From a virus (taxonomy: Duplodnaviria > Heunggongvirae > Uroviricota > Caudoviricetes), in the IMG/VR virus record IMGVR_UViG_3300020048_006428, positions 32,001 through 96,000 of that record: a DNA stretch of 64,000 nt. One strand, given 5' to 3'. The notes under the pieces are model-generated. The model did no database searches and had not been told where the DNA came from. It saw only the letters and a program-made list of their open reading frames with translations. Below, piece after piece: positions 1,150 to 13,722 of the stretch (position 1 is its first letter; each line of letters starts with the position of its first letter). The position numbers and the translations under genes are program-made.

Positions 1150-2322
1150 ATGCCAGCTAAATCAGAAAAACAATTAAAACTTATTTATACTATAAGAAAT
1201 AAGTATAAAAATAAAAAACACACACCTATTAAATGGCAATGGGTTTGGGGTGAAGAATGGGGTCATATGGAAGAAAATAAAATAATAGGATTTACTGATT
1301 ATCTAATTAAAGAAAAGATAAAGGAATTAGTGGATTTATATAGTAGAGTTGATGAATCAAGTAATAATTCTTTTTATAAAAAATTAGCTGATTTAGTTAA
1401 ATCGTTATCTAAGATGGGTAATAATAAGATGATTAATAGATTAAAATCTATTATGTCAATATTAAAATGGAATAAAAAAGTTTCTATTTTTCTATGTGGT
1501 TTATTGATGTTTGGTTGTGGATTTTCATATAATCAGATATCAGATATATTTGGTGATGATACCGAAGAAATTGTCACACAATCTAAAACAGTTGATTATG
1601 AAAAAATGGTTGATGAATATTATGGTAAGGATTTAGAAAAGGATCCAAATTATCATACTTATAAAATGATGTCACATACTGATCAAAATTTAAATGATGT
1701 AATTGAAAAGGATTCAATCTTAGCAAAATCTAAAGAATCTACAAAAAAGATAGATAAAGATGTAAAAGAGTTTAAAAATATTCAATATGATGAAACAAAG
1801 AAACTTGGGAAAAAGATAAAGGGTTTACCTATTAATTTTGATATTGTTCCAAGTAGTGATAATGTGTTTAGGTCAAATCAACCTAAATTAGACCAATTAA
1901 GGAATTTGTTGGAAACATATGATATAGATGTTGTTATAAGAATGAATGCAGAAGAAAAGACTGGTGTTACAATTGAACAAGAAAAGGAATTAGTTGAAAG
2001 TATGGGTAAGAAATTCTTATTTATAAATGCGCATGAAGGTTATGTTAAGGGAAAAGGTTATGTTAAATCATTAGATAAGATACAACCATATTTACGTAAA
2101 GGAAAGGTATTAATTCATTGTACACAAGGTGCAGATAGAACTGGTTATCAGATAGGTAAATTTATTCAAGATAATTTAAAATGGAATAGAAAAAAGTTGT
2201 GGGATTATACAGTAAGGTATAATAGTTGGGAATTATATATCGCTAAGAATAAGAATCCAGAATATATAAAATATATGGAAGCATTTTATCCTTGGGAAAA
2301 ATGGATTAGAGATAATAAATAA
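1150..2322 (+). CDS. Cys-based protein tyrosine/dual-specificity phosphatase-family protein with N-terminal extension and hydrophobic segment
   Basis: P-loop IHCTQGADRTG (HCxxGxxR), upstream FRSNQP; N-terminal MPAKSEKQ motif. Confidence 0.75.
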   Translation: MPAKSEKQLKLIYTIRNKYKNKKHTPIKWQWVWGEEWGHMEENKIIGFTDYLIKEKIKELVDLYSRVDESSNNSFYKKLADLVKSLSKMGNNKMINRLKSIMSILKWNKKVSIFLCGLLMFGCGFSYNQISDIFGDDTEEIVTQSKTVDYEKMVDEYYGKDLEKDPNYHTYKMMSHTDQNLNDVIEKDSILAKSKESTKKIDKDVKEFKNIQYDETKKLGKKIKGLPINFDIVPSSDNVFRSNQPKLDQLRNLLETYDIDVVIRMNAEEKTGVTIEQEKELVESMGKKFLFINAHEGYVKGKGYVKSLDKIQPYLRKGKVLIHCTQGADRTGYQIGKFIQDNLKWNRKKLWDYTVRYNSWELYIAKNKNPEYIKYMEAFYPWEKWIRDNK

Positions 2323-2336
2323 TAAAATAAAAAATT

Positions 2337-2831
2337 ATGAAACACTTAAAACTATTTGAAAACTTCAATAATGAAAAAGATATTATAAAAATAGCAGATT
2401 TAATAAATGGTTTAGATTTGGATTTGGCTATAATTTTATGTGATTCACAAAATATTGATATAAGACAAGCTGTAAGATATTTAATAGAATCAATTAAGAT
2501 TAATGATGTTAATGTTGCTAAAGAATATAGAAATAAAGCAAAATCACTTGGGGAAAATTACGCAGAAGTATTATTCAAAAGAAGAATTTATGATATTGAT
2601 ATTGATGTTTATGTAACTAAGGATATTTCTTATGAGCAAGATGCGAATTATGATGAAGATACAGTAATATATTTTGTTCATTTTGAATATAATGGTGAAG
2701 ATATCAATGGTGAATATGAATTTTCAACTGATGATACTTATGATATTATTATAAATTATAATAAATTTATTGAAAAGTATATATATCCAGATTTTATGTA
2801 TTTTATAGAATACAAAAAAGAAGATTTATAA
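2337..2831 (+). CDS. Hypothetical protein with MKHLKLFENF leader; paralog of 3601
   Basis: First ~40 aa nearly identical to ORF 3601. Confidence 0.7.
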   Translation: MKHLKLFENFNNEKDIIKIADLINGLDLDLAIILCDSQNIDIRQAVRYLIESIKINDVNVAKEYRNKAKSLGENYAEVLFKRRIYDIDIDVYVTKDISYEQDANYDEDTVIYFVHFEYNGEDINGEYEFSTDDTYDIIINYNKFIEKYIYPDFMYFIEYKKEDL

Positions 2832-2836
2832 AATAT

Positions 2837-3604
2837 ATGAAATACTTAAAACTTTTTGAAAACTTTAGTATGTCACATATACGTGAAATATGTGAATATT
2901 ATGATATTACAGACTATTCAATAAATCCTGATGGTTCTATTGATGTAATTGGTAATGTTAATTTTTCAAATGGTAGACTAACTGAAATACCAATAAAATT
3001 TAATAAAGTAGATGGTAATTTTAATTTTTCAAATAATAGATTAACTACTTTGGAAGGTTGTCCAAAAGAAGTTAGTGGCTATTTTAACGTTTTTAAAAAT
3101 AGCTTAACTACTTTAGAAGGTTGTCCAAAATACATTGGAAGTCATTTTTCGTGTAATCATAATAATTTAACATCCTTAGAAAATGGACCAAAATTTGTTG
3201 GTGAAACTTTTAATTGTTCAAATAACAATATTAAAAGTTTAAAAGGATTTGAAACTATTTTAAATGGATCTTTTGTTATTTCTAATAATAACTTAGAAAG
3301 CCTTGTTGATTGTCCAAATATAAGAGGTTCTCTTCATATACAAGAAAATAAACTAACTACGTTAGAAGGACTTCCAGAAGTTCATAAAGGTATACTTTGT
3401 TTTGGAAATCCAATATATGAAATATTTTCTTTGTTTTATAATGATATTAAGATTTATTTAGATTATCAAGAAACATATAATTTTGTTAGAAAGGATTGTA
3501 GAGTAGTTAAATATTTATTAGAAGAAGTTATAAAAGATTATAATGAATATTATAATAAATCAGTAGAATTACCAAAAAAAATTATAGGATATACTTATAT
3601 ATGA
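2837..3604 (+). CDS. Leucine-rich repeat protein with MKYLKLFENF leader
   Basis: ~22-aa repeats GxFxxSxNxLTTLEGCPxxV; N-cap INPDGSIDV and C-cap YLDYQETYNF...GYTYI. Confidence 0.85.
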   Translation: MKYLKLFENFSMSHIREICEYYDITDYSINPDGSIDVIGNVNFSNGRLTEIPIKFNKVDGNFNFSNNRLTTLEGCPKEVSGYFNVFKNSLTTLEGCPKYIGSHFSCNHNNLTSLENGPKFVGETFNCSNNNIKSLKGFETILNGSFVISNNNLESLVDCPNIRGSLHIQENKLTTLEGLPEVHKGILCFGNPIYEIFSLFYNDIKIYLDYQETYNFVRKDCRVVKYLLEEVIKDYNEYYNKSVELPKKIIGYTYI

Positions 3605-4134
3605 AATACTTAAAACTTTTTGAAAACTTCAATCTAAATGAAGATATTATAAAAATAGCTAATCTAATAAATGGTTTAGATTTAGATTTGGCTATAATAC
3701 TAAGCGAAACGCAAAATATTAATATGGATTATGTCATAGACTATTTGATAAGTCTTGTTTTAATACCTGATAGTAAATATCAAGAATTTTGTGATTTTTT
3801 AGAAGAAATTACATATGCAGATGATGCAAAAACTTTATATGAAGCTAAAGTTTATAATTTAGATATAGAAATAACCGCAATTAGAGAATCATATGAAGAT
3901 GATTCATTGGACTTTGATGATGAAGATGATTCATTGGACTTTGATGCAGAAGACTTTTGTATTGAAATAAGAATTAGTTCACCCGAAATATATTATGAAA
4001 CTCTATTATATCCAAGAAATATTTCTACTGGTGTTAAAGATATAATATCTTTATTTAATGAAGTAGTAACTGATATTATTTCACAAACTATGAATGAAAT
4101 CATTGAAAAAAGAAAAGAATCCTTAGAATATTAA
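3601..4134 (+). CDS. Acidic hypothetical protein with MKYLKLFENF leader
   Basis: ATGA overlap with the upstream gene; N-terminus shared with 2337; internal EDDSLDFD duplication. Confidence 0.7.
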   Translation: MKYLKLFENFNLNEDIIKIANLINGLDLDLAIILSETQNINMDYVIDYLISLVLIPDSKYQEFCDFLEEITYADDAKTLYEAKVYNLDIEITAIRESYEDDSLDFDDEDDSLDFDAEDFCIEIRISSPEIYYETLLYPRNISTGVKDIISLFNEVVTDIISQTMNEIIEKRKESLEY

Positions 4135-4149
4135 TCTAAGGATTCTTTT
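4113..4149. terminator. Bidirectional intrinsic terminator
   Basis: AAAAGAATCCTTAGA-n7-TCTAAGGATTCTTTT between convergent genes. Confidence 0.75.
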
Positions 4150-5103
4150 TTATTTAGTTAAAAACCATTCAACACTATTAAGACATTCTAAATCTTTTCC
4201 GCCACCATATGAAATAGAACTCTGTAAACATTCTTCTAAATAAACCAATTCTTCTAAAATTGTTTTATCTTTTAATTCTATTAAATTTCTTTCACCTTCA
4301 ATCCTATTCTTTTTACCGGATTGAAATGCAGAAGCACTGCCCCAATATTCTTTGTATTTTTTACCATCAGAAGCATTTATTACACAACCAGGGGAATCTT
4401 TAAACCCAGATAACATACCACCAACCATAACCATTGAAGCACCTAAAACAATAGATTTTGAAATATCACCTGGTTCTCTTATTCCACCATCTGCTATTAT
4501 TGGCAATTTAGAAGCAATTGCACATTCATATATTGTTGCTGCTTGGCAATTTCTACTACCATATCCAGTTGCCGGATAAGTCGTACAAGAAAATCCTGGA
4601 GCCACACCAACTTTCAGGGCATCTGCTCCCCAATTTGTAAGGTCTTCAACTGCTTCAACTGTTGATATATTACCTGCTATTTTGAATGTATTTGGTAATT
4701 TATCATTTAGATAAGCCAACATCTTTTCCATTTTTATAGAATGTCCGTGAGCAATATCAATAGTTACATAGTCAAGATTAAGATTATTTAATAAAATATC
4801 ATCAATTAATTGATAAGAATCTTCATTTACTCCAATTGATATAGATGATATTAGATTAAGACTATTCATTTTTTTAATAAATTGTAGTTGATCTACATCA
4901 AATCTATGTAATATATAGAAATAACCATTTTTTGCTAATTCAATAGCTAATTCTTCGTTTATAACACATTCCATATTAGCAGGGATGACTGGGATATTAA
5001 ATATGTGTTTTCCAAATTTAGTAGATGTGTTGCATTCTGAACGAGATTCAACAATACATTTTTTTGGTTTTAGATTTATGGTATTAAAATCAAATTTTTT
5101 CAT
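4150..5103 (-). CDS. guaC: GMP reductase
   Basis: PVIPANM, TIDIAHGHS, KVGVAPGFSCTT, PIIADGGIR, LQSSISYGGG; 317 aa without CBS domains. Confidence 0.92.
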   Translation of the reverse strand: MKKFDFNTINLKPKKCIVESRSECNTSTKFGKHIFNIPVIPANMECVINEELAIELAKNGYFYILHRFDVDQLQFIKKMNSLNLISSISIGVNEDSYQLIDDILLNNLNLDYVTIDIAHGHSIKMEKMLAYLNDKLPNTFKIAGNISTVEAVEDLTNWGADALKVGVAPGFSCTTYPATGYGSRNCQAATIYECAIASKLPIIADGGIREPGDISKSIVLGASMVMVGGMLSGFKDSPGCVINASDGKKYKEYWGSASAFQSGKKNRIEGERNLIELKDKTILEELVYLEECLQSSISYGGGKDLECLNSVEWFLTK

Positions 5104-5106
5104 TTT

Positions 5107-5412
5107 TTAGTAGAATGAATATTTTTTATCACTATCAATAATACAATAATTGTTTATTGGATATAAATTAATAACTTCTGAATTTTCATCAACAACACAT
5201 CTCATAGAACCATCTATTAAGTCATTTTGAATTTTAACAGTCATATTATTCAATCCTTTAAATACTGTGAAAAGGGAATCATTTATATCTATTTTAAGAT
5301 ATGATTTCTTTCCAATTAATTTACCATTGTTGTTTTGTTCAAAATAAGATTGAAGAATTACATTTTCCAATTCTTCTGTTTGTTTAAAGTCAATTTTAAG
5401 TTCGTACTTCAT
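5107..5412 (-). CDS. Hypothetical protein
   Basis: ORF co-oriented with guaC, behind an AAAC-N17-TATAAC element. Confidence 0.6.
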   Translation of the reverse strand: MKYELKIDFKQTEELENVILQSYFEQNNNGKLIGKKSYLKIDINDSLFTVFKGLNNMTVKIQNDLIDGSMRCVVDENSEVINLYPINNYCIIDSDKKYSFY

Positions 5413-5486
5413 TTTTTAAAAAGTTTGTTTAATAATTAATTTACTAATGTTATATTTAAGATTTTTATAAAGTTTAATTTTTATGT

Positions 5487-5669
5487 TTATCTTAAAAAGA
5501 TAAACATAAAAACAATCCACAAAATTGGACCAACAATTCTACTATATAACAGTTTTATATTATTTAAATTATTAATATAAAAAATATTTAAATGTATATA
5601 AAACAACAACATCATAAAAACAATTGATAATGCAAAAGAAAAAGCGATTAAGATTAATATGTAAGTCAT
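5487..5669 (-). CDS. Small membrane protein
   Basis: Two hydrophobic stretches in 60 aa. Confidence 0.45.
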   Translation of the reverse strand: MTYILILIAFSFALSIVFMMLLFYIHLNIFYINNLNNIKLLYSRIVGPILWIVFMFIFLR

Positions 5670-5778
5670 ACTTATGTTTAAATTTAGTAAGTGAATAACT
5701 ATATAACTATATAGTTATTCAAAAAGTTCATTTTTTCATTTTTTTCATTTAATATATAAAGAAAAAAGAAAAATAAGT

Positions 5779-6726
5779 ATGAATTACAACAGATTAGTAT
5801 CAAAAATTGAACAAATTACAAATGAAGTTTATTTTTTAAATGAATCATTGGATATGTATGATAGACGTTCTCTTATTATGGGATTTGAAGATGGTATGAA
5901 TGAGGAAAGATCTTGGGCTGAATGGGCAGGTGGTGGTGTAGCTTGGCTACAAAAGAAAGCCGCAAATGTTGTTGGTCAAGTTAAACAAGGCTTGAACTAT
6001 GCTATTGAAAAGGGAAACGAATATTATGAAAGGGGGAAAGAATTAGCTGGTGAAGCTTGGGATTCCATAAAAAAATTTAGTGCTGATGTTTTAAATGGAT
6101 TAACAACCGCATATAAAAGTGCATTAGATACAATACAATCTGGATATAACAAATTTATATCTATGATGTCAAATGCATATACAACTGCATCAGAAGCCAT
6201 TAAATCAGCTTATAATAAACTTAAAGAAAAGGGTGAAGCATTTGTTAATGCATGTAAATCTATTTATCAAAAAGTTATTGAAAATAGCATTTTGGCATAC
6301 CAAGCAACAAAAGAAAAATTTATATCTATGGGTAATGGGTTCACAAAATGGATTAATAATAATGCTGATAGTATAAAAAAACAAGCAGAAGAAGCTAAAA
6401 CATCAACTGTTGCTGGTATTTCTAAATTAGGTGAAATGGTAAGTAATGCTATGACAAAAACTGGCGAGTTTGTAAGTAATGCTATGACAAAAACTGGCGA
6501 AGTTGCTAGTAAAGTAGCAATGATTGCCCTTTTTGTTATTGTTTGGCCAATAAAAACACTTATAAATGGTATAAAATCTATTCCATTAGTATATGATAGT
6601 GCAGTTGATGCTGTTTCTAAATTTGTGGAATCAACTATTAGTGATTTTAAGAAAGGACATACTGATGAAATGGGTAAGAACGAATCTTTAAAATATATTA
6701 TATCTTTTAATAACTTTAACAACTAA
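5779..6726 (+). CDS. Helical repeat protein (apolipoprotein-like 11-mers), probable virion protein
   Basis: Amphipathic 11-aa periodicity, duplicated VSNAMTKTGE, late promoter motif upstream, C-terminal LKYIISFNNF. Confidence 0.6.
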   Translation: MNYNRLVSKIEQITNEVYFLNESLDMYDRRSLIMGFEDGMNEERSWAEWAGGGVAWLQKKAANVVGQVKQGLNYAIEKGNEYYERGKELAGEAWDSIKKFSADVLNGLTTAYKSALDTIQSGYNKFISMMSNAYTTASEAIKSAYNKLKEKGEAFVNACKSIYQKVIENSILAYQATKEKFISMGNGFTKWINNNADSIKKQAEEAKTSTVAGISKLGEMVSNAMTKTGEFVSNAMTKTGEVASKVAMIALFVIVWPIKTLINGIKSIPLVYDSAVDAVSKFVESTISDFKKGHTDEMGKNESLKYIISFNNFNN

Positions 6727-6741
6727 AAGAAAAATAACAAA

Positions 6742-6798
6742 TAACAACTAAAAGAAAAATAACCACTTTAAAAGTGGTTATTTTTCTTTTAGTTGTTA
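6742..6798. terminator. Long perfect inverted repeat / bidirectional terminator
   Basis: 28-bp arms TAACAACTAAAAGAAAAATAACCACTTT-A-reverse complement. Confidence 0.75.
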
Positions 6799-6813
6799 AA
6801 GTTTAAAAAAAAT

Positions 6814-6890
6814 GAAAACTCAGAGTAGCGAATTCTGAGTTTTCTATAGACACCTGTGTTTCGGTGTAACTATAATGGTCCTAAGCCATT
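6814..6890 (-). ncRNA. Candidate structured RNA with complementarity to 23S rRNA H69-H71
   Basis: Three adjacent hairpins; 6866-6885 matches E. coli 23S nt 1910-1929 at 19/20 and 6825-6832 matches nt 1930-1937; last hairpin followed by a U-tract on the minus strand. Confidence 0.6.
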
Positions 6891-7190
6891 TTAATCTTTA
6901 TTTGGTATCCAAAGTTCTTTATCATCTTTATTTGGCATCCAAGTAATATCTTTTTGATATTCTTTTATCAAATTTTTAATCTTATCCTTTTTCCAAAATT
7001 GCCACCATTTTTTATTGGTTATTTTTCCAACTGGTATTATATAAACTATAATATAATTATTTAATTCCGTGAAATCTACTTTTGTTAAGTTATCATTTTC
7101 TATTTTATATAGAAATCCATCTATTATTCTAAAGACCTTATTATCTAATTCATCATAGTATATATTGTCAATACATTTTAATTTTTCCAT
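6891..7190 (-). CDS. Hypothetical protein with KKWWQFWK motif
   Basis: ORF with its own AAAC-N17-TATAAT element; immediately upstream of the candidate ncRNA. Confidence 0.6.
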   Translation of the reverse strand: MEKLKCIDNIYYDELDNKVFRIIDGFLYKIENDNLTKVDFTELNNYIIVYIIPVGKITNKKWWQFWKKDKIKNLIKEYQKDITWMPNKDDKELWIPNKD

Positions 7191-7219
7191 ATTTATTATA
7201 TTTATAAATTTAATAAAGT

Positions 7220-8074
7220 TTATTTTAAAAAATAATTATATTTTTCATATGTCATTATTATAGAACTTAAATTCATTATTACTTTCTTACTTTCTAATTT
7301 ATTTAGTTTATTATCATTTATTTTATTTACAATTAAAGCTGGTCTATATTCTTCAATATCTTCTTTAATTACATCCCTTAATCCATTTTCTGTTTTTGAA
7401 ACCATTACTTCCAAAATAGAATTTAATTCATCAATTACTTTTAATGTATCAAAATCATTATTGTAATAACTTATTTGATCATATCTTGTTATTTCTTCGT
7501 TTATAAATTTATCACCTTGTGATTTATAGCCAACTAAATGCTGAATTAATAATCTTATCTTTTTAAATCTTGTTTGATCTATATCTTGTGCATATAATGT
7601 TTCATTTATATAATAAAAATTTTTAATTAAAATACCATCTTCTTTTAATTTTTCTTTTAATTTTTCGATTATGGTTTCATAATTTCTTTTTGTTTGTTTT
7701 GAACATATAATATAAATATCTTCAACTTTATTTTTTAAGTCTAAAATTGTATTAAGATTTAATTCAAAATCCATTTCATCAATTATACTTTTATTGTAAA
7801 ATTCTTGTAATGATATAGCCAAATTACCAAAGTTAGCTTTATATGTTTTAGCTTTAATTTTAATTTTATTATATAAATCTGTTGGTAGCCAAAATGTCCT
7901 ACCATTAAACTCCATTTTATTATTTTGTTTTCTATAAATTCCATTTTCAATTAAATTGAAATCCGATTTGGATATTTTCATAATAGGTATAGTTGGATTG
8001 TCTTTATCAACAATCCAAGCCTTATTATTAATTTCTATTAAAGAATCTATATCAAAGAAATGTGCTTTATTCAT
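7220..8074 (-). CDS. Hypothetical protein, possibly degenerate HAD-like fold
   Basis: N-terminal HFFDID; late promoter motif upstream. Confidence 0.55.
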   Translation of the reverse strand: MNKAHFFDIDSLIEINNKAWIVDKDNPTIPIMKISKSDFNLIENGIYRKQNNKMEFNGRTFWLPTDLYNKIKIKAKTYKANFGNLAISLQEFYNKSIIDEMDFELNLNTILDLKNKVEDIYIICSKQTKRNYETIIEKLKEKLKEDGILIKNFYYINETLYAQDIDQTRFKKIRLLIQHLVGYKSQGDKFINEEITRYDQISYYNNDFDTLKVIDELNSILEVMVSKTENGLRDVIKEDIEEYRPALIVNKINDNKLNKLESKKVIMNLSSIIMTYEKYNYFLK

Positions 8075-8122
8075 ATTGTATATATTAAAAAAACCAACTA
8101 AATATTAGTTGGTTTTTAATTT

Positions 8123-8986
8123 TTATTTTATATCTGAAACTTTTGCGATTATTTCACTTTTTTTCTTTTTAATATCAGCTTTTCCATCATCAGTTTTTCC
8201 AAAACCATATTCATCACCATTTATTTCTTCAATAGACTTAACTGCTACTGTTTCGCTATCATCTTTTTTATCTTTAGCTATCTTTCTTTTTTCATCATCA
8301 CTTAGTTTATTCCAATCATCTTTAGTCTTATCTTTTCTAAGATAAATAACTTCATCCCCCACTTCATATTTAACTTCTTTCTTAGTAGTTAATACATTGT
8401 TTAATTTTGCTTGTAATTGTTTATTTGCTGTATCTCTTGCCTTAATAACTTGTGGTAATACAGATTTATCACCAGCATCTTCTAATGCCTTAATTTTTGC
8501 GTTTAAAACATCTAAATTAAATTGATCCTTTTTAGTATCTATTAATAATTTTAATTGTGGATTTTTTTCTTCACCGCCAAATTTAACTAATATTCTATCA
8601 AAATCTTTCATTGCCATTTTAAAATAAGTGTCTATTATTTGATCTATTAATTTCTTCTTTTCTTTTAATGTTTCCGCATCAATTTTAGTATCCCCATCTT
8701 CAATCTCATCAGCTTCAACTATTAAAGACTCTTTTAATGAAGATGATGCAAAAAGATTTAATTCTATATTAGCTTTCTTTTTAATTTCTTCTGCTATTTT
8801 CTTTTTCCATTCATTATATTTATTTTCTAATTCTTTAGCACCTTTTATACCAGCTAATTTAGACCACATATTTTTAAAAAACTTTCCGATTCCAAATATT
8901 TCTTCATTCATTGGCTCATAAGTGCGAGATTTGCACTTCCTTTCAGAAAAATATTTGAAATTTTCAAATGTTCTTATATATTTCAT
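8123..8986 (-). CDS. Lys-rich helical protein with MKYIRTFENF leader
   Basis: Leader motif, late promoter motif, downstream hairpin near 8089-8117. Confidence 0.65.
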   Translation of the reverse strand: MKYIRTFENFKYFSERKCKSRTYEPMNEEIFGIGKFFKNMWSKLAGIKGAKELENKYNEWKKKIAEEIKKKANIELNLFASSSLKESLIVEADEIEDGDTKIDAETLKEKKKLIDQIIDTYFKMAMKDFDRILVKFGGEEKNPQLKLLIDTKKDQFNLDVLNAKIKALEDAGDKSVLPQVIKARDTANKQLQAKLNNVLTTKKEVKYEVGDEVIYLRKDKTKDDWNKLSDDEKRKIAKDKKDDSETVAVKSIEEINGDEYGFGKTDDGKADIKKKKSEIIAKVSDIK

Positions 8987-9056
8987 ATTATTTTTTATTT
9001 TTATATATTAAATTATAAAAATAAAAAGCAGTCATTAAAAATGACTGCTTTTAAAA

Positions 9057-9509
9057 TTATCTAATAAAATCTTTACTAAGTGCAAATTCGTATAATGTAG
9101 GTAAATTTAAATATCTAATAAATCCATCTTTTATATCTTTATATGTTTTTGCTTTTTTAATAATTGACATAACCATATATCCAAATTCTTCCTGGTATTC
9201 ATATTCACAATTTGACCAAGATTTGCAATAATTATGTAAAGTTATCCATTCATAATCACCACCTGAAAGCCAATATAATGCCTTTCTTGGCTCTATATTT
9301 TCTATACCATCAGTTATATTCATTTTCCAAATAGAGTCTTCAGAATCCGAAGTTTTCATCATAATAGCTACTGCTTCTGCCAAATCTGTTGTAATAGAAT
9401 TACCGACTTCAAATAAATTCTCACCATTTGGTTGTCTGTTAATTTTAACAATATTATCTTCATTTAATAGTTTAATATTGTTTTGCTTGGTGTTACGTTT
9501 TTTTCCCAT
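9057..9509 (-). CDS. Hypothetical protein
   Basis: ORF followed by hairpin 9024-9052. Confidence 0.6.
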   Translation of the reverse strand: MGKKRNTKQNNIKLLNEDNIVKINRQPNGENLFEVGNSITTDLAEAVAIMMKTSDSEDSIWKMNITDGIENIEPRKALYWLSGGDYEWITLHNYCKSWSNCEYEYQEEFGYMVMSIIKKAKTYKDIKDGFIRYLNLPTLYEFALSKDFIR

Positions 9510-9539
9510 ACGAAGAATAATTAATTTTTTTCAATCTTT

Positions 9540-9824
9540 TTAAATAAGATTTAAACCACTCACAAATTTTCCATGAAATTGACCACCTTCCAAAATGCCA
9601 TTTTCAAAAGTGCCATGGAATTTACCACCTTTAAATATACCATAATGCCAATTACCTAAGTAATAACCATCATACCAAATTAAAGTATTATTCTTTATTT
9701 CTATTTTAGCATCCTCAATTTCTGATTCGAGAAACCAGAACATTTTTTCTTTTTCTAAGATTGCATTTATTTTATTGTTATTAGTAATAATATCACCATT
9801 ATATTTAAGTTCCAAAAATCTCAT
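9540..9824 (-). CDS. Hypothetical protein with G-x-F-x-G pentapeptide-like repeats
   Basis: WHYGIFKGGKFHGTFENGILEGGQFHGKF. Confidence 0.6.
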   Translation of the reverse strand: MRFLELKYNGDIITNNNKINAILEKEKMFWFLESEIEDAKIEIKNNTLIWYDGYYLGNWHYGIFKGGKFHGTFENGILEGGQFHGKFVSGLNLI

Positions 9825-9969
9825 AATTTAAAAATATTTTTCTTATTCATTATATATTTTTTAAATTATACCACTTATATAAAGATTATTTATTTTCTGG
9901 AAATTTTAAAATAAAAAAATAAAAAACCCACCAAATTTATTTGGTGGGTTTTTAAAAAAACTTTTTAGG

Positions 9970-10338
9970 TTATTTTTTAGATTCTGCTTCAAGAAATTCC
10001 TTTTCCTTTTTGTTTAAAGAATTAACACCTTTTTTAGATATTTTTTCAAGGATTATATCAATATCAAGGATAGCATCAACTTCAATTTCTTTTTCGCTGT
10101 TCATTAAGAATGAACTAAACTCATCCAACAAAACAATATTGGATTCAAATTTAGGAACATATGCAAATATATTCAATGTTTTACTATCAAAAAATAGAAT
10201 ATCCGCAGTCTTTTTCATTTCAATTGTTTTCTTAACTGACATATTTGATGGAAAATTCAATGCATCAAATCGTTCTTGAAGTTGTTTAGATGTTTTATAT
10301 AGTCTAAGATCAATTTTAATAATATTAAATGAGTACAT
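9970..10338 (-). CDS. Hypothetical protein with C-terminal DUF6576-like motif
   Basis: IDIILEKISKKGVNSLNKKEKEFL resembles the tail of Bacteroidota rhomboid proteases; TATATTTG upstream. Confidence 0.55.
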   Translation of the reverse strand: MYSFNIIKIDLRLYKTSKQLQERFDALNFPSNMSVKKTIEMKKTADILFFDSKTLNIFAYVPKFESNIVLLDEFSSFLMNSEKEIEVDAILDIDIILEKISKKGVNSLNKKEKEFLEAESKK

Positions 10339-10435
10339 AATGATATAAATTTTTATTTGTTCACAAATATAATAAATACTTTTTATATAGTAAAATTTTA
10401 ATATATATATTTAATAAAAAAAATATTTAAAAAAT

Positions 10436-13108
10436 ATGAAATATATAAAAAGTATAAGTGAGTTCAAATCATATAACGAATCAAATATAAGAAAAGTTCC
10501 ATATAGTAGGGAAATAAAAGTTTATGAAAATGCATTTGAAAATGATATTACTTGGGGTGGGTCTTTATTAGGTAGATTAATAAATTCCACAATTAGATAT
10601 AGCACAGCACAATATAAATCAACAAAAATAAAAGGAATAGTTGCTAAAGTTCAAACATGTTTGGATACATTAGTTGCTAATGTTGCGTTAGATGAAGATA
10701 GTAACAATTCTATTGATAAATTAAAAGTTAAAATGCTTTTAAAAGAAATATATGCTGTTGTTTCAAGTGATTCTGAATTGGATGAAAAATTAACAACATT
10801 ATTGGGTGATAAGACACAAGGGTCAGGTCTTATAGATACAACTATATCATACATAGAAAGTATTGATATTGATAAAAAAGATATATTGATAAAGAAGTTA
10901 GAAGATTTTAAGAAAGCCTTGATGGATATAGACTATAATATAAAAGATGATGATGAAGATGATGAAGATACCAATGATGTTGACCAATCTAATCCAGAAT
11001 TTAAGTTTTTCACTACAAATATAAATCTATTTAAATCAATAATAGGTCTTAATAATGTAATTAAAAATAGAAGAATAAAAATAGAAGGTGAACAAGATAT
11101 TGATAGTGGATATACAACTGCTGACACTTCTGTTGATGATTTTAATGCTTATAATAGAAACCAAAGAAATATTAATAAGAATAAAAAAGTTGATAATAAA
11201 CAGACAACTACAACTAAACCAATTACAACAACCCAAACAAAGAAGCCACCATTTAAGATAACATCAATTGGTAGTAAGGAAGAAGTGGAAGAAGTCAAAG
11301 CTAATGAAAATGTTGAAACCCTAAGAAGTAAAGAAAAACATGCAATAGCTGCTTGGAAAAAAATAATTAAGATATGTAAAGATATTAAAATTGATGATTT
11401 ATCAAAGAAATTAGAAGAAATTATAAATCAAAGTAAATCAGGTGAAAAATTAAATAAAACTGTAGTAATTGCTATTGGTAAGAATATAATATTAAATGAA
11501 GCAACAACTGGTAAACCAATCGGTTATCAAGAATTAATAAAAGAAGAAATGGGTAATATCCCTTCACAATATTCTGATTTACCAAAAAGAATTTCATTTT
11601 TATCTAAAATTTTATTATCATTCAAAGATGATATGGGTTTAATTGGATCACTTGGGGAAGCTATTCAACATATTAAAAATTATATAAAATCATATAACGA
11701 ATTAAAAAATATCTACCCTAAACTTTCTAATAAAAAGTTAGAAAAATTTAATGATTTTAATTTTAAGAAGAATTTAGAAAAATTTAATGATTTTAATTTT
11801 TTAAATGAAAAATTTGATATAAATGATGATTCAACCTATGATAAAGTTCAAGTGGCTTGGTTTAAATTTTTTAATAAAGGTGAAGAAAATTCTTGGAAAT
11901 TAACCAATGAAGATTCTGAATTGAGAGATAAAGTGGAAAATATAGGTGATAAAGAAATACCATTTGATTCCGAATCACATGTAGATAAAATAATGGAAAT
12001 AGTTAATCTATTTGGAAAAGCATATCGATTATATGCTAATAGTAGTATTCCATCTGGTAGACCTGGTGGTAGAGTATCACAAAAAACTTTTAGAGCATAT
12101 ATTTATATTGGAGAACTATCTAGTGGTAGAGGTGGTGATTGGGAAAATGGTGTTGCAAGTGGTGGACCATGGGCATATAAGATAACATTTGAAAAATGGG
12201 AAGATGGTATTACTAAAATATTAGAAGATCCAAAATATAGAAAAGTATTAGCAAACATCAAATTTAAAAATACTGGACCTAATCAAGATCAAGGTTCTGG
12301 TGTTACTGGTAAAGATGGTGGTTATGGTAGTGATGGTGGATCACCAAACAGAAAAATTGTATCCGGTAGATCATTATTTGACTTCATAAATGAAATGATA
12401 AATCCAGAAGGTGGTTTTGCTAAATCAAGACAAAAAATAATGAAAGAATATTTTGGTGGGGTTGATAAACTTACATCAGCAGAAGAAGAAGCAAGAAAAA
12501 AAGAAGAAAGAGAAAGTAAAGAAAATTTACAAGAACCAAAAACTAAAGAAGTTGGTGATAAAAAAGTAATATCATTTGTTAGTGCTGATCGAAATGGATT
12601 ATATAAAGTAGATAATATATCTAAACTAATTGGTAATTTTATTAAAATTAAATATAAAGATAATCATATTATAGCATATGTGATTGGGAAAAAAGAAATT
12701 AATAAAATTGAACATTTGTTAATTAAATTTAATTTTTCTAGTTCCGGTGAAAAACAAAATTTAATATCTAAATATCTATCTAATGATTTAAAAGACAAAT
12801 ATAAAATAACTGAAGAAAGTAAAATAATCGAGGAAAACACTCCATTATATTTTGGTGTTATTCCAGTTTCACAAAAAATATTAAAAAATAAAGATTTGAA
12901 ATTTAAATATGGTAAAGTAACCAATAATAATTTAATAAGTGAGATAAAACTGTTAGATATTAAAAAAATAGAAGAAATTACATTTTTAGCACATTGTCCA
13001 GACCAAGATAAAGTAATATGGAAATTAGTTGAAGTTAAAACCCCACAAAGTAGACTACAATATGACATATCAGATATAGATAAAATAGACTTAACAAAAT
13101 TAATATGA
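10436..13108 (+). CDS. Large hypothetical, probably virion-associated protein
   Basis: 890 aa, late promoter motif, leader-like N-terminus, just upstream of the tail sheath region. Confidence 0.65.
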   Translation: MKYIKSISEFKSYNESNIRKVPYSREIKVYENAFENDITWGGSLLGRLINSTIRYSTAQYKSTKIKGIVAKVQTCLDTLVANVALDEDSNNSIDKLKVKMLLKEIYAVVSSDSELDEKLTTLLGDKTQGSGLIDTTISYIESIDIDKKDILIKKLEDFKKALMDIDYNIKDDDEDDEDTNDVDQSNPEFKFFTTNINLFKSIIGLNNVIKNRRIKIEGEQDIDSGYTTADTSVDDFNAYNRNQRNINKNKKVDNKQTTTTKPITTTQTKKPPFKITSIGSKEEVEEVKANENVETLRSKEKHAIAAWKKIIKICKDIKIDDLSKKLEEIINQSKSGEKLNKTVVIAIGKNIILNEATTGKPIGYQELIKEEMGNIPSQYSDLPKRISFLSKILLSFKDDMGLIGSLGEAIQHIKNYIKSYNELKNIYPKLSNKKLEKFNDFNFKKNLEKFNDFNFLNEKFDINDDSTYDKVQVAWFKFFNKGEENSWKLTNEDSELRDKVENIGDKEIPFDSESHVDKIMEIVNLFGKAYRLYANSSIPSGRPGGRVSQKTFRAYIYIGELSSGRGGDWENGVASGGPWAYKITFEKWEDGITKILEDPKYRKVLANIKFKNTGPNQDQGSGVTGKDGGYGSDGGSPNRKIVSGRSLFDFINEMINPEGGFAKSRQKIMKEYFGGVDKLTSAEEEARKKEERESKENLQEPKTKEVGDKKVISFVSADRNGLYKVDNISKLIGNFIKIKYKDNHIIAYVIGKKEINKIEHLLIKFNFSSSGEKQNLISKYLSNDLKDKYKITEESKIIEENTPLYFGVIPVSQKILKNKDLKFKYGKVTNNNLISEIKLLDIKKIEEITFLAHCPDQDKVIWKLVEVKTPQSRLQYDISDIDKIDLTKLI

Positions 13109-13722
13109 AAATTAAAAAATATTTAGATTTTATTGCAGAAAAGTTTCAGGCGGATCAATCCGATCCACCTGAAATGGCATCTGATATGAACACATATAAT
13201 AGTTTAGAAAAATCAATTTCAGATTTCAATCAAAAAAAAGTTGAATTAAGTAATATTTATATGACTTATAAAGATGAAGCTGATTTAATTAACAAATTAT
13301 CAGCTCGTGGGCATATTGAAAAGAAAACAAATAATAAAAAACAAATTAAATTTAATAATCCTGTTTTAGCCTTATGGTCACAATCTTGTGAATTAAGAAG
13401 AAAGATTAAAGATTTAGAAGATGGTATTAAGAATGAAGAAGAAGGTATTAAAAGTGAACAAACTAATATTACAAACAATCAAGGAAATCAAACTATCCAA
13501 GATTCATCAACTTCTAAAATAGACCAATCTAAAGCTAATGTATTAAATAAAAAAAATGAAGTTACTAAATTAAGAAAAGAAATAATGGATATTGAAAAAA
13601 AGGTTAATGATAAGCTAAAACAAATGAAAAATGATTTAAATATATCTAAAAAAAGAATAGACTATTATAAAATTAATAAAAGGTCAGCTTCAACCACACA
13701 AACTGATATAACAAATCAATAA
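13105..13722 (+). CDS. Coiled-coil protein with MKIKKYLDFIAE leader
   Basis: Heptad-rich; N-terminus close to the T4 CTS MKTYQEFIAE. Confidence 0.65.
   Translation: MKIKKYLDFIAEKFQADQSDPPEMASDMNTYNSLEKSISDFNQKKVELSNIYMTYKDEADLINKLSARGHIEKKTNNKKQIKFNNPVLALWSQSCELRRKIKDLEDGIKNEEEGIKSEQTNITNNQGNQTIQDSSTSKIDQSKANVLNKKNEVTKLRKEIMDIEKKVNDKLKQMKNDLNISKKRIDYYKINKRSASTTQTDITNQ

Follow-up and report, generated by a model that had tools for sequence, protein, structure and literature searches.

A conserved structured RNA of large phages with invariant bases complementary to 23S rRNA nucleotides 1921 to 1940

Antisense RNAs that present their recognition bases in loops are exemplified by the CopA/CopT pair of plasmid R1 and the RNA I/RNA II pair of ColE1. 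Viral RNA can also pair with rRNA, as in the TURBS of caliciviruses, elements that lie before a stop-start overlap and pair with small-subunit rRNA. In eukaryotes, some H/ACA and C/D guide RNAs target H69. SprF1 of Staphylococcus aureus is a ribosome-associated noncoding RNA that binds through its purine-rich 5' end, according to a review of such RNAs that mentions neither 23S rRNA nor phages (PMC8938821). A synthetic PNA against H69 inhibits growth of E. coli (Kulik 2017, as cited in PMC7038079).

We analyzed a 64,000-nucleotide stretch (the window) of a 276-kb phage record that has 25% GC, is 47% complete, and has a tail sheath closest to those of 634- to 735-kb uncultured huge phages. It contains an RNA element of about 85 nucleotides (Table 1), which is single copy in the record; a model built with the window sequence itself matched only there. 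Like CopA and RNA I, the element carries its recognition bases in hairpin loops and has a terminator-like 3' end, and a YUNR-type UUCG is present in its loop 2, which sits on a covarying stem (21 of 31 unselected loops). CopA and RNA I are encoded opposite their own targets, whereas the proposed target here is rRNA, and the 23S target junction is absent from the element's own record and from five phage genomes carrying the RNA, two of them near complete. Therefore, the partner should be a host RNA. Like SprF1, it is small and has a proposed site of action at the subunit interface, where it would damp translation, and it would count as a ribosome-associated RNA if binding holds, although recognition would be by loops and not by a purine-rich 5' end. 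It shares with snoRNA guides the short, split antisense segments directed at a conserved large-subunit rRNA site. However, it lacks the H/ACA and C/D boxes and belongs to a bacterial host, and, unlike in H/ACA guides, its segments sit in two separate loops in swapped order and cover 1921 to 1937 contiguously, with no unpaired target base between them. TURBS are likewise viral elements near a stop codon with rRNA complementarity, but the phage RNA follows the stop, has its complement in 23S rRNA, and can stand alone. It differs from the bridge RNA or seekRNA of IS110 and IS1111 in having no conserved neighbor and in that both segments complement the same strand, and from a LAGLIDADG homing site or rRNA intron remnant in having no intact contiguous site and no linked endonuclease in the 47%-complete record. 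The H69 PNA has the same target region and, in the account cited above, shows that this region is open to antisense attack; it is artificial, and we found no natural counterpart in the literature.

Table 1. Coordinates of the RNA element and its neighbors in the window
Feature	Position	Strand	Basis
Whole RNA element, three hairpins and U-run	6805-6890	-	Fold and single-copy searches
P1 stem, 6889-6886 with 6878-6875	6875-6889	-	Alignment of relatives
Loop 1, CUUAGGA, complement of 23S 1923-1929	6879-6885	-	Complementarity
20-nt complement of 23S 1910-1929, one mismatch facing C1920	6866-6885	-	Sequence match
P2 hairpin, length and sequence variable among relatives	6845-6874	-	Fold and alignment
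Terminal hairpin, 11 bp, free sequence, pairing kept	6814-6844	-	Covariation
Loop 2, AUUCGCUAC, 8 nt complementary to 23S 1930-1937	6825-6833	-	Complementarity
U8 run after terminal hairpin, terminator-like 3' end	6805-6812	-	Sequence
ORF of 99 aa, no Pfam family, upstream of RNA	6891-7190	-	Stop abuts RNA
Separate near-perfect 20-bp palindrome, probable terminator	6747-6793		Between element and convergent gene 5779-6726

A first-pass annotation of the window had noticed two rRNA-like pieces and three abutting hairpins. Both pieces are where it placed them, at 6866-6885 and 6825-6835 of the plus strand, and folding of 6814-6890 recovered the three hairpins on either strand (z of -5.2 for minus and -6.0 for plus). 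The U-run that it described after the last hairpin is present, but one A separates the stem from U8. A terminator scan did not call this hairpin, the 9-nt loop of which is outside the scan's definition; the intrinsic-terminator form (stem and then U-run) is present in the short subfamily, and many pseudoknotted members have no long U-run. A sigma-70-like promoter with 11 of 12 matches lies inside the element on the plus strand (6847-6876), antisense into ORF 6891-7190. Its TATAAT arises from the compensatory change in P1, and relatives do not retain it.

Two real rRNA contigs supplied the 23S target sequence, and its positions are given in E. coli numbering. A search of the window that allowed up to 3 mismatches recovered the 20-mer alone, where 0.01 matches were expected. 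In a 276-kb genome of 25% GC, chance would yield the 20-mer at an estimated 2e-5 and the 20-mer with the 8-mer nearby at about 6e-9. The rRNA complementarity is far beyond chance. Sequence comparison agreed with the earlier claim that the two loops are complementary to contiguous 23S sequence in swapped order. Two C residues after loop 1 extend the complement to G1921, so that the loops together complement 1921 to 1937, and purines flanking loop 2 could pair with U1939 and U1940 with one A bulged. Complementarity fades at 1940-1941 and leaves 1941-1943 open; of the H69-H71 target proposed before, H69, H70, and loop 70 are covered, but the complement stops short of H71. The mismatch at C1920 is real, but it is not the single departure that had been described, because one A of the A1936-1938 run is also missing from the second piece. 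The mismatch does keep the local stem, through a compensatory change in P1, which is AUGG/CCAU in the window, ACGG/CCGU in most relatives, and ACGA/UCGU in LR756501. P1 and P2 engage the 3' half of the 20-nt complement, and the long H69 complement characterizes a subfamily and is outside the family core. Computed pairing of naked RNA with the rRNA segment gave -28 kcal/mol for the window's 5' arm and -16 and -14 kcal/mol for the loops.

Two other sources of the complementarity were considered and rejected. The two rRNA contigs (L279 and L371) carry real 23S genes, and helix 68 of these genes holds a second copy of GUAGCGAA, which is a rare variant. Capture in natural order from such an H68 variant was rejected because the variant is rare and was absent from a GTDB scan. 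There is also a divergent phage tmRNA (G000:C1:106369-106724, 46.8 bits against a cutoff of 47) with an 11-nt match to 23S 1927-1937 in its tag region. This tmRNA was rejected as the target because five other carriers lack the match.

When viral and metagenome contigs were scanned with sequence patterns, many relatives turned up that share the swapped order. These patterns required the H69 segment; further scans left out each part of the pattern in turn. By a permissive count over all fetched loci, the family comprises at least about 180 distinct sequences in at least 289 loci. With the loops as the only pattern, 104 of 109 distinct scorable matches were true members, and none of the 104 had the full H69 complement. 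The element occurs in LR756501, LR756502, LR756504, and LR745206, which makes 4 of 5 checked huge phages of 460 to 735 kb; under stricter filters, there was no model match in LR756500, Lak-A1, PTm1, or pT24. BLAST against deposited phages returned only uncultured huge phages and rRNA contaminants. Among 185,579 bacterial and archaeal genomes in GTDB, an H69-type pattern, which would miss other subfamilies, gave four matches, none with the hairpin. Neither the window element nor any of ten member loci reached the gathering score of an Rfam 15 family; the only Rfam match was a tRNA elsewhere in L547. We found no published description of this RNA in a literature search that mostly covered nonsubscription papers. 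In the L506 phage, a weak second model match (E of 0.03, G003:C1:18823-18898) lies at a distance of 4.5 kb from the main copy, and in L537 the terminal loop is inverted (sense orientation), by either stem-mediated inversion or assembly error.

The first-pass annotation had looked to conserved loops on covarying stems for support, and this is what the relatives have. In the window's subfamily, 85% of terminal-stem cells are paired, and 11 of 11 pairs have two-sided changes, while the loops are fixed. The covariation score was reached by 0 of 500 shuffles, and slid controls were far lower. The invariant columns of alignment A1 are rRNA-complementary bases only. Flanks that the loops-only pattern did not select follow the rRNA as well: C faces G1921 in 101 of the 104 members, G faces C1920 in 86, and the two positions before loop 2 are purines in 103 and 102. 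The stem pair next to these purines takes all forms in the same 104. In a scan that did not use loop 2 (31 loops), the bases facing 1932-1935 were invariant and the base opposite G1930 was always C (19) or U (12), a variation limited to G.U wobble; edge mismatches were tolerated (1937 paired in 68%). Free variation of the base facing m3-pseudouridine 1915 is suggestive at most, with GUU in 66 of 104 members, against 33 by chance. These comparisons point to a real, conserved RNA, with invariant bases that complement 23S 1921-1940.

The family displays its complement in more than one way. In a large subfamily, a pseudoknot surrounds loop 2, and its triplets covary in 71 of 73, 6 of 6, and 2 of 2 cases; the window copy does not have it. 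L547-type phages carry a contiguous, unpermuted complement with U facing G1930, and the L504 type has three changes, all wobble compatible. These unpermuted versions, which are followed by long terminator hairpins, were seen in L547, L539, L533, L530, L566, and L544 and in L504, L531, L521, and L526, and possibly have separate origins. Because some phages carry the same complement unpermuted, the swapped order would be only a way of displaying it. Docking by two loops, as suggested earlier, fits the two conserved complementary loops, but the contiguous versions indicate that two loops are not essential. Selection appears to act on complementarity to 23S 1921-1940, for which the family has at least three modes of display.

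The minus strand had been proposed as the RNA, and three observations agree. Internal mismatches of the terminal stem, read antisense, are 14 G.U against 1 A.C (in relatives that are not independent); the U-run sits 3' on the antisense strand; and promoters in relatives point the same way. The promoter motif of the clade, AATATATA, is 17-fold enriched before genes and lies 18 to 22 nucleotides upstream, in the element's direction, in 7 close relatives, several with a divergent upstream gene. The LR745206 element has this motif upstream as well. These strand tests, all made on sequence, favor the antisense (minus) strand. No AATATATA motif adjoins the RNA in the window, and therefore the window RNA probably forms the 3' end of the ORF 6891-7190 transcript. 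A genome-wide promoter-like motif, TTTAATATATA, was also seen (for example, upstream of 5779, 8074, and 8986); it is 17-fold enriched before ORFs and has two spacings, 11 to 14 and 21 to 35 nucleotides before the ATG.

Most members begin within about 14 nucleotides of a stop codon; in the pseudoknotted subfamily the RNA usually begins at the stop, and in 13 members the stop is a UAG inside loop 1. This proximity suits a role in cis or else calls for processing. Readthrough or peptide coding was rejected because there are stop codons in all frames. Comparison of relatives indicated that the 99-aa ORF is not a conserved partner, and upstream proteins fall into 48 clusters with no fixed neighbor. 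The C terminus of this ORF has a short internal repeat, W-x-P-N-K-D twice (6894-6941, minus strand). In other loci, the next gene is 26 to 606 nucleotides away. In some clades, nrdA, nrdB, or guaC adjoins the element, which is weak evidence because these genes are common in large phages.

By complementarity and conservation, the RNA very probably pairs with host 23S rRNA. In 23S secondary structure, the target includes the 3' strand of the H69 stem plus H70, and in the mature 50S it is folded and partly packed. However, H67-71 is disordered in 45S (late 50S) precursors (PMC3737534). This disorder, together with the PNA effect, suggests that free or immature subunits, at least, leave the site accessible. 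Decay of 23S begins with an RNase E cut after 1942 (PMC4931109). The complement ends just before this cut and overlaps the MazF-mt3/-mt6 site in loop 70. Given an accessible site, these positions favor an inhibitory clamp on free or immature 50S, possibly feeding 23S turnover, to which we assign a probability of about 0.45. The phage-encoded antisense RNA, supplied by the upstream mRNA as its 3' end in the window and by its own promoter in close relatives, would recognize host 23S nucleotides 1921-1940 in 50S subunits that are free or still late precursors, in which H68-H71 is loose. Its two loops would pair with adjacent halves of the target to form two stacked helices of 8 to 9 bp meeting at G1929/G1930. 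This pairing would take the 3' strand from the H69 stem and open H70. Bridge B2a would be prevented, so that subunits could not join and the 50S would be kept from the translating pool. With 1941-1943 left open, RNase E could make the cut that starts 23S turnover, and the host ribosome supply would be shut down, with nucleotides freed for a very large genome. Several points speak against such a clamp, among them the stop codons close to most members, the tolerated edge mismatches, and the inverted loop of L537. Inactive 50S would also hurt phage translation, unless the RNA acts late or selectively. Moreover, half of the window's long complement is sequestered in P1/P2, and at C1920 structure won over complementarity.

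We rank the clamp above the alternatives. Pairing might instead protect or chaperone, by holding H69-H70 of assembling or idle 50S, like snoRNAs in eukaryotes, or by masking loop 70 from nucleases, with later release. Loop 70 is indeed cut by MazF-mt3, MazF-mt6, and RNase E (PMC5408214, PMC4191395, and PMC4931109). The purines before loop 2 could cover U1939-U1940, and more active ribosomes would be a gain for a large phage. However, the fading complement leaves 1941-1943 uncovered, and a duplex of 17 to 20 bp would need a release factor, whereas no linked helicase or other gene was seen. We therefore regard protection as unlikely. Slightly less likely still is a cis-acting 3' untranslated region that refolds after termination and tethers the freshly split 50S to the phage mRNA, aiding recycling or reinitiation, much as a TURBS would but with the large subunit. 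The window RNA abuts a stop codon, and 97 of 99 upstream ORFs are co-oriented, most ending 4 to 14 nucleotides before loop 1, but 89% of ORFs in those loci are on that strand anyway. The upstream genes are also unrelated and occupy all three frames, several relatives combine a divergent upstream gene with their own promoter, and the next gene in the window is convergent.

The remaining explanations fare worse. A role in guiding or splinting an enzyme that would modify, cleave, or ligate at G1929/G1930, with its gene elsewhere in the phage or in the host, is improbable. The segments do meet at one junction, each can extend one base across it (C in 89 and pyrimidine in 102 of 104), and the pseudoknot of the large subfamily covaries, yet contiguous versions leave no junction pocket, the three architectures share no conserved box or catalytic core, and no enzyme is linked. 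The sense-strand decoy for H69-binding enzymes or toxins that the first-pass annotation offered as its alternative, or a target in DNA for a recombinase or a homing endonuclease of the I-CeuI type, is very improbable. In the window, folding is slightly stronger for the plus strand, which could also close loop 2 by a G.U pair and has the promoter-like sequence within the element; however, the strand tests point the opposite way, and H69 itself is missing from 104 of 104 loops-only members. The contiguous DNA site is also absent, and there is no LAGLIDADG_1 gene in the record, which is 47% complete. Least credible of all is the outcome that the same annotation had named as its refutation, an rRNA fragment captured by chance and reused as a terminator. 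The short subfamily does end in a terminator-like hairpin, but loop bases fixed across hundreds of phages, fully covarying stems, and retention of the same complement by three architectures contradict it.

More broadly, we think it likely that large phages widely encode antisense RNAs, in at least three architectures, that pair with the universally conserved H69-H70 junction and control the fate of host 50S, whether its joining, maturation, or turnover. The target is where RRF binds and where RNase E and MazF cut. We found no description of a natural bacterial or phage RNA that pairs with the functional core of 23S rRNA, and this kind of RNA regulator, which is not known from bacteria or phages, would be new only if binding holds. 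If so, phages would control ribosomes directly by RNA, and the RNA would be a natural tool for the study of late 50S assembly and rRNA turnover. Because the target is near universal, E. coli ribosomes would serve to test the proposal, although none of the carrier phages is in culture.

The surroundings of the element gave some further observations. The palindrome downstream is outside the RNA family and probably terminates transcription in both directions; part of its flanking sequence recurs at 6720-6745. A near-identical phage contig, L285, lacks this palindrome and the window genes of 5487-6800, and in it a homolog of ORF 5107-5412 directly follows the element. Window positions 5487-6800 are therefore likely to be an insertion relative to L285. 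Finally, many proteins encoded in 1150-13722 have in common an N-terminal MKxLKLFENF-type motif, a possible virion-targeting peptide.
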